Below, in pieces: positions 8,833 through 11,428 of a stretch of DNA of 52,491 nt. Source of the DNA: a virus (lineage: Duplodnaviria; Caudoviricetes); the IMG/VR virus record IMGVR_UViG_3300006922_000034, positions 1 through 52,491 of that record; one strand, written 5' to 3'. Both the position numbers and the translations under genes were made by a program. The notes under the pieces were generated by a model. That model did no database searches. It was not told the DNA's origin and was given only the letters and a program-made list of their open reading frames with translations. Numbering within the stretch: the first letter of the stretch is position 1; each line of letters begins with the position of its first letter.

Positions 8833-9708
8833 ATGGCAAAACAAACAAGTAATCCGTTAGCAGGACACTTTAGAACGCCAAAATTATATACAGGATTACC
8901 AAGTGGGGGAGATTATTATTCAAATGATGTTTTAGATACATCTATTGAAGAACATGCAGTCCTTCCAATGACGGCAAAAGACGAATTGATTATGAAAAAT
9001 CCAGACGCACTTTTAAACGGTGATGCTGTGATACAAGTAATAGAAAGTTGTGTACCAAGCATTAAAAATGCAATGGCACTTTTTAGCAACGATGTAGATG
9101 CTTTATTGGTTGCAATACAAGGCGCAACCTTTGGAGATGATATTGAGGTACAAGCAGTATGTGATAAATGTGAAGAACAAATTACAAGTGTATTGAGTGT
9201 TGAAGGTGTTTTAACCACAATGACTAATTTAAAAGAATCTTATCAGTTCACAACTGCATCAGGATTATTAATTAGTGTACAACCTTTTAGTTATAAATCT
9301 GCTGTAAAGGCAGGTATTGCTAATTTTAGAACTACTAGAAGTTTACAATCAATTGCAGATATCCCAGACGAAGTAGATAGAATTCGTGCTTTTAACGAAA
9401 ACTTTGTAGAATTAGCAAGTTTAAACTTTGAGCTTATGGTTGATAGTGTTAAAGATGTAACTATTAAAGAAGGCGAAGATACTATTGTTGTTTCAGATAA
9501 AAAACAAATTAAAGAATTTTTAGAAAACTGTGATAGAGCAGTTGGAAGTGAAATACAAACATTTATAGAAGAAATTTCTAATGTTGGTATTAATAAAAAA
9601 ATGGAAGTAGGATGTGAGAAAGAAGAATGTGGAGGCTCACCAGAAGAACCATACATATTTGAATCTGAGGTGAACTTTAATCCTGTAAATTTTTTCACCG
9701 CTTCCTAG
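8833..9708 (+). CDS. gp26: Baseplate hub/tail assembly chaperone, gp26-like
   Basis: LPSGG, PMTAKDEL, D.DALLVAI...TFG, two Cys pairs (CDKC, CEKEEC) and a C-terminal NFF, as in gp26-family proteins. Confidence 0.75.
   Translation: MAKQTSNPLAGHFRTPKLYTGLPSGGDYYSNDVLDTSIEEHAVLPMTAKDELIMKNPDALLNGDAVIQVIESCVPSIKNAMALFSNDVDALLVAIQGATFGDDIEVQAVCDKCEEQITSVLSVEGVLTTMTNLKESYQFTTASGLLISVQPFSYKSAVKAGIANFRTTRSLQSIADIPDEVDRIRAFNENFVELASLNFELMVDSVKDVTIKEGEDTIVVSDKKQIKEFLENCDRAVGSEIQTFIEEISNVGINKKMEVGCEKEECGGSPEEPYIFESEVNFNPVNFFTAS
9687..9696 (+). promoter_or_regulatory. Putative -1 ribosomal frameshift site (A AAT TTT / T TTT TTC)
   Basis: Two overlapping X XXY YYZ heptamers in frame with gp26. The -1 frame is open from 9681 through the downstream ORF. 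Confidence 0.7.
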
Positions 9709-9929
9709 CTCAATCAGAGCCAGAAGAGATTGTGGCATATCTTGGGAGGCTGAAAAAAGAAACAGACGCCCTAGAAAAAAATATTTGTGAACTTGTGATT
9801 TATAGCGGAGGCTCAATTGCATGGAACGATGTTTGGTATATGTCAACTCCTCAAAGAACTTTATTAGGTAAAACACTAGAAAATATGCTTAAACAAAAAG
9901 CAGGCAAAACTGTAACAGATGAACTCTAA
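9696..9929 (+). CDS. gp51-like baseplate/tail assembly catalyst, probably made as a -1 frameshift extension of gp26
   Basis: Short helical ORF with a W..M...R motif. Its GTG start at 9732 has only a weak RBS, and the frame is open back to the slippery site. Confidence 0.65.
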   Translation, partial: HRFLAQSEPEEIVAYLGRLKKETDALEKNICELVIYSGGSIAWNDVWYMSTPQRTLLGKTLENMLKQKAGKTVTDEL

Positions 9930-10348
9930 TGTCTTGGTTATATAATAACAAAGAAATTACCGAACTTCCAGAAGAATGCGAAGCCTTCGTATATATTATC
10001 ACTAACCTAACAAACAACAGAAAGTATGTTGGTAAAAAGTTAGCAAAATTTAAAACTACTAAACCGCCATTAAAAGGCAGAAAAAATAAACGTCGTGGTA
10101 CGAAAGAAAGCGACTGGAAAACATATTGGGGTAGTAACGATCATTTAAAAGCAGATGTGATAGAACTAGGAGAAGACTCTTTTACAAGAGAAATATTGCA
10201 CTTTTGTCCTAGTAGAGGTGTTGCAAGTTACTTAGAAGCACAAGAACAGTTTGAAAGAAAGGTATTACTTACTGACGATTATTATAACGGAATAATCAAT
10301 GTAAGGGTAGGCGGCTCAGAAATCCTTAAAGAAGCATTGACAAGTTGA
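9929..10348 (+). CDS. Minimal GIY-YIG (Seg-like) endonuclease, catalytic domain only
   Basis: FVYIITN..NNRKYVGKK, Y.GS, F.REIL, YLE, YYNG motifs. It has a basic insertion and no C-terminal DNA-binding module. Confidence 0.85.
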   Translation: MSWLYNNKEITELPEECEAFVYIITNLTNNRKYVGKKLAKFKTTKPPLKGRKNKRRGTKESDWKTYWGSNDHLKADVIELGEDSFTREILHFCPSRGVASYLEAQEQFERKVLLTDDYYNGIINVRVGGSEILKEALTS

Positions 10349-10359
10349 TAACTATTTGC

Positions 10360-10819
10360 TGATAAGAACACATCATGGCACATCACAGACGTTAAGTCAA
10401 AACAAGGCACACATAGGACTATACACCGGCTCTACCGAGGCATATTTAATCGGACTCTTTGACAATCCAGTAATCCTGGTGCGGGACTCTAGAGATGTAT
10501 AGCGGCAAAGATACAAACACACGTTAAACAGTATTAAAAGGATGTAGGCAATGAGAAAAAGCAACCTACAAGTTATATAACTAAACTTACTAAGGTTATA
10601 TGGCTTCCGTGAGATTCGTGACGGTAGTGTATGGGGACAAAAGGCTCACCGGTTCCTAATAGCACCCGAAGTTAAGAAGGCGAAGACATCACATGATGAC
10701 ACCTTTCTCACCTTTTATAGGTGAGTTATGGCTTCAACATACATGATAACGGTCTTTTAAAAAACTTTCAAACAAATGAAAGAGTTGAGTGAAACGAAAC
10801 GATTGAATGTAGTTTGAAA
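10360..10819 (+). ncRNA. Putative large structured non-coding RNA of unknown class
   Basis: No ORF of 60 aa or more, GC-richer than other intergenic DNA, about 10 helices including long-range ones with G-U pairs on the + strand, and a near-consensus late promoter (TGATAACTA, 10346-10354) just upstream. Confidence 0.6.
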
Positions 10820-10834
10820 AGGTCCGTAGGACCT
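10817..10834 (-). terminator. Terminator of the leftward operon (cUACGg tetraloop hairpin plus U tract)
   Basis: Minus strand GGTCC-TAC-GGACC-TTTT directly at the stop codon of ORF 10833-11171. Confidence 0.65.
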
Positions 10835-11171
10835 AAACTGTTTGTAAATGTTCTTTAATATGTTTACAGTTACCTCTAAAAGTATAACCAGGACATGTGC
10901 AAGTATTCTTTTTAGTGTCCAGCAAATAAACATTACCTTTAGAACCTTGTATTTTTACTATATGACTTTCCAGTTCTTCTTCCCTTTCGCCAATTTTCAC
11001 AAACTTACGTCTTGCTTTACTGAATTGTGTGCTAGGAACTTTAAGAACTTGGAGTTCAGAATCTTGATCAACTTGATAACCTACAAGTCTACCTGAGGAA
11101 CTTACATGATAAACTCCATTGTTTACCTTGTACTTTCCCCAGTCAGTTACTTCTTGTAATATTTCAATCAT
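10833..11171 (-). CDS. SWIM zinc-finger protein
   Basis: GSKGNVY...CTCPGYTFRGNCKH matches the CxC-xn-CxH SWIM motif. Confidence 0.8.
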   Translation of the reverse strand: MIEILQEVTDWGKYKVNNGVYHVSSSGRLVGYQVDQDSELQVLKVPSTQFSKARRKFVKIGEREEELESHIVKIQGSKGNVYLLDTKKNTCTCPGYTFRGNCKHIKEHLQTV

Positions 11172-11428
11172 TAAGCGACTTCTATCATGCTAAGTGGAAC
11201 ATTATAACTGCTACCTTGCATATCAACAACACAACGTTTAATATTTACTTTCTTAATTACACCAGGTGTACGTTTTGTTTTTTGTACTACAAATACATTA
11301 TCACCTACATTTAAGGTTGCTTTGGTTTGTGTTTCCATAACAGTTCTTGTGTAAGATATTAAAGATTGTAGATCAGAAGTAGTGAAATTACCTCTAAGAA
11401 CTTCTTGTTTTATTTCATTTAATGACAT
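11171..11428 (-). CDS. Small hypothetical protein with SH3/KOW-like C-terminus
   Basis: Start reassigned to MSLNEIK after a GGAG RBS. LNVGDNVFV...GVIKKVN pattern suggests a small beta barrel. Confidence 0.65.
   Translation of the reverse strand: MSLNEIKQEVLRGNFTTSDLQSLISYTRTVMETQTKATLNVGDNVFVVQKTKRTPGVIKKVNIKRCVVDMQGSSYNVPLSMIEVA

Follow-up and report, generated by a model that had tools for sequence, protein, structure and literature searches.

A doubly pseudoknotted, strongly selected non-coding RNA beside a GIY-YIG gene of T4-like marine phages

The subject of this work is a 52,491-base stretch of DNA from a T4-like marine phage, IMG/VR virus record IMGVR_UViG_3300006922_000034, referred to here as the window, which is a fragment with an estimated completeness of 14%. 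A gap of 484 nucleotides (nt) without genes, at 10349-10832 (coordinates are those of the window and features lie on the + strand unless stated otherwise), encodes a structured non-coding RNA (ncRNA) of about 430 nt that is doubly pseudoknotted and strongly selected. The locus is an RNA locus; it is neither a coding sequence nor the remains of a gene nor a cruciform in the DNA, and the RNA family is uncatalogued, being absent from Rfam. The best explanation, which we hold with slightly better than even confidence, is that this is a gene of its own for a large folded ncRNA, covering about 10403-10834 plus a leader of about 55 nt, which presents two short sequence boxes to a reader. Large, intricately folded orphan RNAs are rare, and each has opened new biology before.

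Fold of the RNA

An earlier note, made from this sequence alone, had proposed a large, multi-junction and pseudoknotted ncRNA on the + strand at 10416-10735 and had traced ten pairs of complementary segments for it, all of which are present and complementary in the window. The folding energy of this range gave the proposal no support: the minimum free energy was -74.4 kcal/mol against a shuffle mean of -72.96 kcal/mol (z -0.29), with 35 of 100 shuffles as good or better. The z-score for the minus strand was +0.50, and those for the two strands of the whole gap were -0.33 and +0.20. We regard the single-sequence folding z-score as uninformative, and by itself it would have wrongly dismissed the RNA element.

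Covariation among relatives is decisive for the proposed class of RNA, and very strong, though for a partly different fold. RNAalifold was run on a 30-sequence alignment, A2, which was also used for all helix counts given below, including those for the helices of the earlier note; it predicted 80 pairs, 42 of them with compensatory changes. Two pseudoknots, and a correction of the 5' domain, came from a mutual-information (MI) scan of 91 distinct copies (effective number of sequences, Neff, 43). The final model has 85 pairs, 13 helices and two pseudoknots, with 96.9% of the A2 cells paired and two-sided change in 50 of the 85 pairs (286 cells). None of 500 shuffles reached any of these values, and a control in which the partners were slid by 1-3 columns gave 33-44% paired and 9-15 two-sided pairs.

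P1-P4 make up the 5' domain of the RNA and P5-P10 its central domain, which the two pseudoknots lock; the boxes, P13 and P16-P18 belong to a 3' part. In the 5' domain (10419-10502), P1 (10419-25 x 10496-502; 100% paired, two-sided change in 3 of 7 pairs) encloses P2 (10435-38 x 10450-53; 100% paired, two-sided in all 4 pairs), P3 (10455-58 x 10491-94; 77.5% paired, the alignment register being poor there, two-sided in 2 of 4) and the local hairpin P4 (10463 and 10467-70 x 10476-79 and 10483; 95-100% paired, two-sided in 3 of 5). A helix at 10459-61 x 10667-69, fully paired (100%) and varying on one side only, may be a closing one. The central domain (10510-10665), for which we have both the covariation count on A2 and a covariance model described below, consists of P5 (10510-14 x 10531-35), P6 (TGTAGG/CCTACA, 10543-48 x 10565-70) with a near-invariant loop of 16 nt, the 11-bp P7 (AGTTATATAAC/GTTATATGGCT, 10571-81 x 10595-605), P8 (10607-10 x 10621-24), P9 (GTGT with GCAC, 10627-30 x 10662-65) and P10 (10633-38 x 10652-57). 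The first pseudoknot, PK1, joins CTTAC in the loop of P7 (10586-90) to GTTAAG (10671-76) and leaves one T bulged; it shows two-sided change in 4 of 5 pairs, and its top MI pairs are 10590-10671, 10589-10673 and 10588-10674. In the second, PK2, GAG of the P8 loop (10611-13) pairs with CTC of the P10 loop (10645-47); this helix is 100% paired with two-sided change in 2 of 3 pairs, and its MI pair 10612-10646 occurs as four pair types.

Three of the ten traced helices are among those supported on A2, namely P6 (two-sided change in 3 of 6 pairs), P7 (10 of 11) and P13 (CTCACCT/AGGTGAG, 2 of 7), and the other seven are replaced by covariation-backed alternatives. Jointly these seven show two-sided change in 4 of 38 pairs (6 cells), and variation on one side breaks them; at alignment columns 183-366, for example, and also at 384-473, 23 of the 30 sequences are unpaired. 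Among them are the long-range closing helices GGTGC/GCACC and GGGAC/GTTCC, as well as GGA/TCC, TGTAT/ATACA, GAAGTTA/TGGCTTC and GAAGG/CCTTT. The partner of GTTCC is the GGGAC at 10634-38, within P10, and not the one at 10483-87, and GGTGCG closes the local hairpin P4 rather than a long-range helix. The pseudoknot first drawn, CTATACAC/GTGTATGG, likewise breaks when one side varies, and CTATACA pairs with TGTATAG in P1 and not with GTGTATGG.

The argument that G-U pairs place the RNA on the + strand held. Conserved G-U pairs occur in P5 (GU in 29 of 30 sequences), P9 (UG in 29 of 30) and P10 (GU in 27 of 30 and in 30 of 30), and since they would be A-C mismatches on the other strand they fit the + strand only. 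The range 10416-10735 does lie within the element, but the conserved core runs from about 10403 to about 10834, so that the second box and all of the 3' domain fall beyond it; similarity is lost past P18 (A2 column 592). The 3' domain (10766-10834) is made of P16 (10766-73 x 10812-19; two-sided change in 7 of 8 pairs), with inner pairs at 10776-77 x 10807-08 and 10784-86 x 10798-800, followed by the terminal hairpin P18 (10820-25 x 10829-34; two-sided change in 4 of 6 pairs). The leader (10349-10402; A2 columns 1-100), a candidate promoter or spacer, has a conserved start of the TAACTATTTGCTGA type.

Relatives and the neighbouring nuclease gene

IMG/VR loci were fetched via the SWIM zinc-finger protein encoded to the right of the gap, and 16 of the 29 hold the gap sequence at 72-98% identity. 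In those 16 the RNA lies directly 3' of an open reading frame (ORF) of about 140 amino acids (aa), on the same strand, and its position and orientation relative to the SWIM gene differ. A search with an alignment of this ORF gave at least 588 relatives, of which 80 were retained, and blastn located the RNA in 43 of the 73 ORF loci having at least 300 nt downstream. A two-motif DNA pattern added at least 119 further IMG/VR stretches. All loci together hold 158 RNA instances, 149 of them with enough upstream DNA. The ORF is directly upstream in 132 of these and 0.6-1.5 kb upstream, on the same strand, in 13; the remaining four (loci L113, L122, L206 and L209 in our numbering) lack a profile match and were discarded as chance pattern matches, which leaves same-strand linkage in 145 of 145 real instances. 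The same pattern matched 120 stretches in 596 Gb of cellular genomes; nhmmer recognised no relative among them, and they are chance matches. No cultured phage record contains the RNA, and only four Melnitz phages match, in the ORF part only. Three records carry one copy each, one of them a 340-kb record that is 91% complete. DNA contigs with the stretch came from 18 marine, seawater, riverine and viral metagenome runs of 14 studies (two of the runs possibly being the window's own source), and the RNA is thus widespread in ocean viromes.

Given that the RNA and the ORF may form a mobile cassette, the RNA was compared against the silent sites of the adjoining ORF. Over 378 pairs from 28 loci, mean identity was 0.76 in the RNA core, 0.54 at ORF third codon positions and 0.45 at four-fold sites, and the RNA was more conserved than the silent sites in 99.7% of the pairs. 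The RNA is under purifying selection.

A covariance model of the central domain (10506-10680; 180 positions, 36 pairs), named model R1 and distinct from the box of that name, scores 200 bits on the window. It also finds divergent copies, which we call type B, at the expected place behind the ORF, with E-values of 1.8e-10 (L079), 1.9e-9 (L086), 1.1e-6 (L060, L061 and L098) and up to 0.02 (L075 and L077). Further conserved non-coding clusters of about 450-550 nt (types B, C and D) stand behind the same ORF family, for instance at L058:2920-3520, in L089 and L095, and at L060:2920-3500. The type C RNAs (L058, L089, L095) are not reached by model R1. Their alignment of five sequences has 107 predicted pairs, 9 of them compensatory, and twin boxes of its own, and the similar layout is what would suggest kinship.

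The constant upstream neighbour is, by its sequence, a SegE-type GIY-YIG domain and nothing else. In the window it is a 139-aa ORF (9929-10348) that matches PF19835 (E 2.6e-33, residues 3-123) and phrog_447 (E 9.8e-36). Its AlphaFold2 model has a predicted local distance difference test score of 89.8, and the best PDB fold matches are to the I-TevI catalytic domain, with weak E-values of 0.07-0.12; a sequence search for a solved homologue found none. In 56 relatives, whose identity is 69-89% and whose alignment has 67 invariant columns, the ORF stops at one common point, and Y22, Y33, G35, R55/R56 and N120 are invariant and E88 nearly so, residues that we take to be the I-TevI catalytic ones. 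Homologues of the ORF in many cultured phage records (for example L351:1774-2214 and L353:1801-2217), and phrog_447 itself, bear the label 'NAD synthetase', which is likely an inherited mis-annotation because Pfam and the predicted fold both indicate a GIY-YIG nuclease; the present finding corrects this likely annotation habit.

Together the ORF and the RNA, about 0.9 kb in all, behave as a cassette that turns up at several places in the genome, since upstream genes abut the ORF start and conservation stops after P18. In at least four different contexts an upstream gene extends as far as the start codon of the ORF. A neighbour census, having included some spurious antisense frames, was used only to establish that contexts differ. 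Reading the insertion boundary from an empty site at the SWIM gene was tried and failed, as the DNA similarity of relatives is confined to that gene. In the 13 relatives with the distant ORF, it is separated from the RNA by other genes, among which 6 of the 13 have an ORF on the opposite strand; the RNA's own leader start is nevertheless kept. The inserted genes include an opposite-strand 2OG-Fe(II) oxygenase (L152:5592-6086; PF13640, E 1.5e-7) and an IMPDH/GMP-reductase (L121:4297-5325). Another inserted ORF, of 203 aa (L203:5525-6133), has by eye a GIY-YIG-like N-terminus and no Pfam match. The RNA is therefore linked to the ORF yet separable from it.

Free-standing homing endonuclease cassettes of the T4 seg type, such as segB beside tRNA and small-RNA genes, offer a close parallel: a small GIY-YIG gene is wedged between genes with its start abutting an upstream stop, its position varies, and RNA is carried along. 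Here, in contrast, the ORF is a 139-aa catalytic domain only, homing would be assumed by analogy, and the passenger is one large structured RNA instead of tRNAs. The arrangement also resembles OMEGA systems (TnpB or IscB with omega RNA), in which a nuclease gene is followed, on the same strand, by a structured RNA that lies at the 3' border of a mobile unit, and one could imagine the RNA as scaffold or guide of the adjoining nuclease, which has no DNA-binding domain, in an OMEGA-like RNA-directed homing. The linkage in every real instance, the catalytic-domain-only ORF and the position of the RNA at the 3' edge of the cassette would all fit. We give this little credence, however, as the nuclease family is unrelated and opposite-strand genes can separate the ORF from the RNA, and the cassette and the 52-kb window yielded no hypervariable, guide-like segment with a target. 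Same-size homologues, 43-50% identical, also occur in 269 cultured phage records, and in the three inspected other genes follow directly 3'; in the Melnitz phages, whose ORF is 77% identical, the covariance model finds no RNA; and the basic hairpin of the protein is present in RNA-less homologues too. Because of these homologues, that hairpin and the survival of the leader after gene insertions, we read the nuclease as a neighbour and not a partner of the RNA.

Hardly credible to us is that the stretch is no RNA gene at all and instead the remnant of a C-terminal nuclease domain, a site acting at the level of DNA, or simply the 3' untranslated region or terminator of the ORF. The stretch does begin directly after the stop codon, its fold z-score is not significant and contigs from RNA libraries bridge the ORF and the RNA, but the shared ORF end in 56 relatives, the 50 compensatory pairs, conservation above that of silent sites, the strand asymmetry of the G-U pairs and the leader retained after opposite-strand insertions all speak for an RNA. 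A coding or pseudogene reading was likewise rejected: no stop-to-stop frame in the gap is longer than 53 aa on the + strand or 82 aa on the minus strand, indels between relatives in A2 have lengths that are not multiples of three, and mini-ORFs starting from AUGs in the first box or after P13, as we read the relatives, differ in length or vanish.

Twin boxes and the possible action of the RNA

The 3' part of the RNA contains two direct repeats of 10-13 nt in the same sense, box R1 (10685-10699, ending in GATGAC) and box R2 (10737-10751, ending in GATAAC), placed on either side of the hairpin P13 (10707-10725). An A-rich tract lies 3' of box R2. Among relatives the box core varies (CATG, CGTG, CTTG, CGAG, TATG, with differing 5' flanks) and is always alike in both copies. 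This identity covariation is strong, with MI values of 0.90 (10691-10741), 0.85 (10693-10743) and 0.75 (10688-10739), and just 2-7% of these combinations are canonical pairs. CATGATRAC occurs only at the two boxes in the 52-kb window, counting both strands. Three sequences from divergent relatives of another sequence type, as we read them, behave in the same way with other words. Two same-sense words that mutate together are an unusual signal and point to a specific interaction.

Several accounts of the boxes were tried and rejected. Pairing of R1 with R2 is not compatible with the identity changes, which are not those that a helix needs. A minus-strand promoter overlapping box R2 is contradicted by variation among relatives in the last two -10 positions. 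A translational hop between the boxes, of the kind known from gene 60, would require an upstream frame that crosses compensatory helices and non-triplet indels.

The hairpin between the boxes may be part of a switch. GTGA at 10618-21, in the P8 loop region, and GTGA at 10721-24 are both complementary to TCAC at 10708-11, the 5' arm of P13. The helix 10618-21 x 10708-11 is 98.3% paired, and its pair 10619-10710 (UA in 16 sequences, AU in 12) covaries exactly as the pair 10710-10722 does, which suggests, from the sequences, an alternative pairing or a triple.

In the explanation that we favour, that of an independent RNA gene, the RNA would be transcribed from its own promoter and would act in trans as a free-standing folded RNA. 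It would travel with the GIY-YIG gene as a cassette, yet as a gene of its own that does not depend on the nuclease. The two boxes would be shown to one common reader, for which a strand complementary to both is our first choice and a protein the second, and their presentation may be gated by the switch, in which the 5' arm of P13 would alternate between the 3' arm of that hairpin and GTGA of the P8 loop. The stretch is present in RNA libraries, as contigs from 4 runs of 4 studies that cover parts of 10289-10838 at a depth of 2-5; one of them, 163 nt long, has zero differences to the window. RNA-run shares of 0.07-0.18 are too small to inform on habitat or expression level.

A number of points weigh against this explanation. 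The RNA-library contigs are unstranded, give no ends or level and may reflect DNA carry-over, and the two that bridge the end of the ORF into the RNA would fit read-through from the ORF as well. No sigma-70-like promoter on the + strand and no intrinsic terminator was found, in a scan that did not extend to phage promoter types. The search for a third, cis partner of the boxes was negative, with no complement in the RNA (by MI), in the ORF, in the leader or on either strand of the 52-kb window. The switch rests on a single strongly covarying pair, the very tight synteny with the ORF (145/145) could still mean functional coupling, and the single-sequence folding energy is no better than that of shuffles for 10416-10735 and for the whole gap.

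The boxes also recall the ColE1 RNA II and T4 oriF and oriG R-loop origins, in which an upstream RNA segment equals a downstream DNA segment and can pair with its template. By analogy, the present RNA could be an origin-type or pre-primer RNA, whose box R1 would be brought by folding to pair with the template strand at R2, for which the two boxes must be equal, so that a persistent RNA-DNA hybrid starts copying or recombination. The twin boxes do supply an RNA segment that matches a segment of sense DNA farther downstream, and they combine identity covariation with the lack of a complement in cis, for which the minus strand of the phage would be the one complement that always tracks both; the variable number of leader words looks like iterons, an A-rich tract follows R2, and there is one RNA copy per genome. 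We nonetheless think an origin improbable. The 3' domain past R2 has compensatory changes and is thus folded as RNA beyond the supposed hybrid, and, as a G/A difference sets the two boxes apart throughout, the nascent RNA itself would fit the R2 template better than R1. The RNA is also far more elaborately knotted than those of the known origins, and we know of no T4-type origin that needs so ornate an RNA. A bolder extension of the independent RNA gene, which we likewise judge improbable, is that the doubly knotted body positions its two identical, rapidly evolving words to capture one complementary strand, perhaps phage DNA, as an RNA-built start of replication or recombination hitch-hiking with a homing-type nuclease. 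If true, giant marine T4-like phages would possess an RNA device of a new kind.

The leader words just mentioned are CA-rich, 9-10 nt long and of the GGCACA type; they occur in variable number at 10349-10411 of the window and in the leaders of relatives, one of which (L050) repeats its word perfectly three times in tandem. Their role could be that of protein sites, of iteron-like sites or of a spacer.

As a further alternative, the boxes could be two equivalent cleavage sites, used by a ribozyme core or an endoribonuclease, that free a P13 module of about 50 nt. Near-invariant unpaired loop and junction nucleotides together with a double pseudoknot are found in ribozymes as well, and identical boxes do bracket a discrete hairpin. 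Cleavage sites, however, need neither vary nor co-vary, and there is no Rfam ribozyme match, which makes self-processing or processing quite unlikely in our view. Very unlikely, too, is an RNA-only higher-order assembly like ROOL, GOLLD and OLE, in which copies would touch one another and so produce the covariation that the monomer does not explain, at the boxes and between 10710 and its second partner. Those RNAs are reported to form homo-oligomers (PMC12286853), and ours, a large and ornate RNA of a phage, has conserved segments for which the monomer model does not account. There is, however, no homology to ROOL, GOLLD or OLE, and antiparallel pairing between boxes does not require the observed identity changes, the CUUG and CGAG variants giving tandem mismatches. 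The independent RNA gene that shows its boxes to a common reader is our preferred reading.

Known RNAs and the surroundings of the gap

At gathering scores, Rfam 15 matches the window only at two glutamine riboswitches and nowhere at the RNA; over 9700-11300 it returns chance-level rows only (E 1.7-9.1), and a Flavivirus xrRNA match (E 0.79) and other matches with E above 1 were set aside as chance. ARAGORN reported no tRNA or tmRNA gene, and no Rfam model of group I or group II introns, RNase P, tmRNA, GOLLD, ROOL or HEARO matched, which bears out the remark of the earlier note that it saw no consensus of the first four of these. Full-text searches on structured RNAs of phages and viruses, on GIY-YIG proteins, on Polynucleobacter-1 and on homing endonucleases turned up no description of the RNA. 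Fremin et al. 2023 (PMC10690425) catalogue over ten thousand viral candidates in their supplements, and the locus may be among them.

With GOLLD, ROOL, OLE and raiA the RNA shares a length of hundreds of nt, many helices, pseudoknots, GNRA-capped variable stems and conserved unpaired nucleotides, as well as being phage-borne and an orphan. It differs from them in lacking sequence or model similarity, in being linked to a GIY-YIG gene and not to tRNAs, and in its identity-covarying twin boxes. Polynucleobacter-1 (RF01718; Weinberg et al. 2010, PMC2864571) is likewise an aquatic orphan motif, with 141 positions against about 430 nt in our case. It is not detected here: with a gathering score of 37 bits, RF01718 has no match in the window even at E<=10, none at the gathering score in the loci of 40 relatives, none in the 5' parts of L058 and L060 at E<=10, and none in four large records.

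The genes on both sides of the gap are complete. To the right, a 112-aa ORF with the SWIM zinc finger occupies 10833-11171 on the minus strand. The G+C content is 0.39-0.43 in the gap and about 0.29-0.37 in the flanks. Elsewhere in the window are genes for a T4-type portal (PF07230, E 8e-109), a T4 baseplate protein and a Rad50-like AAA_23 protein. Within 10819-10840, read on the minus strand, the P18 hairpin stands right at the stop codon of the SWIM gene and is followed by TTTT; it may also serve as a terminator of that gene in this genome, although a simple terminator scan reported none. The two glutamine riboswitch aptamers (RF01739, 50.1 and 44.8 bits) stand in tandem at 1-128 on the minus strand, the second truncated by the end of the window. 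At 24733-52259 a run of very large ORFs (1507, 6263 and 1175 aa) lies on the + strand, the last two separated by an ORF of 215 aa; the 6263-aa frame is open under translation table 11 and is exceptional for a phage.

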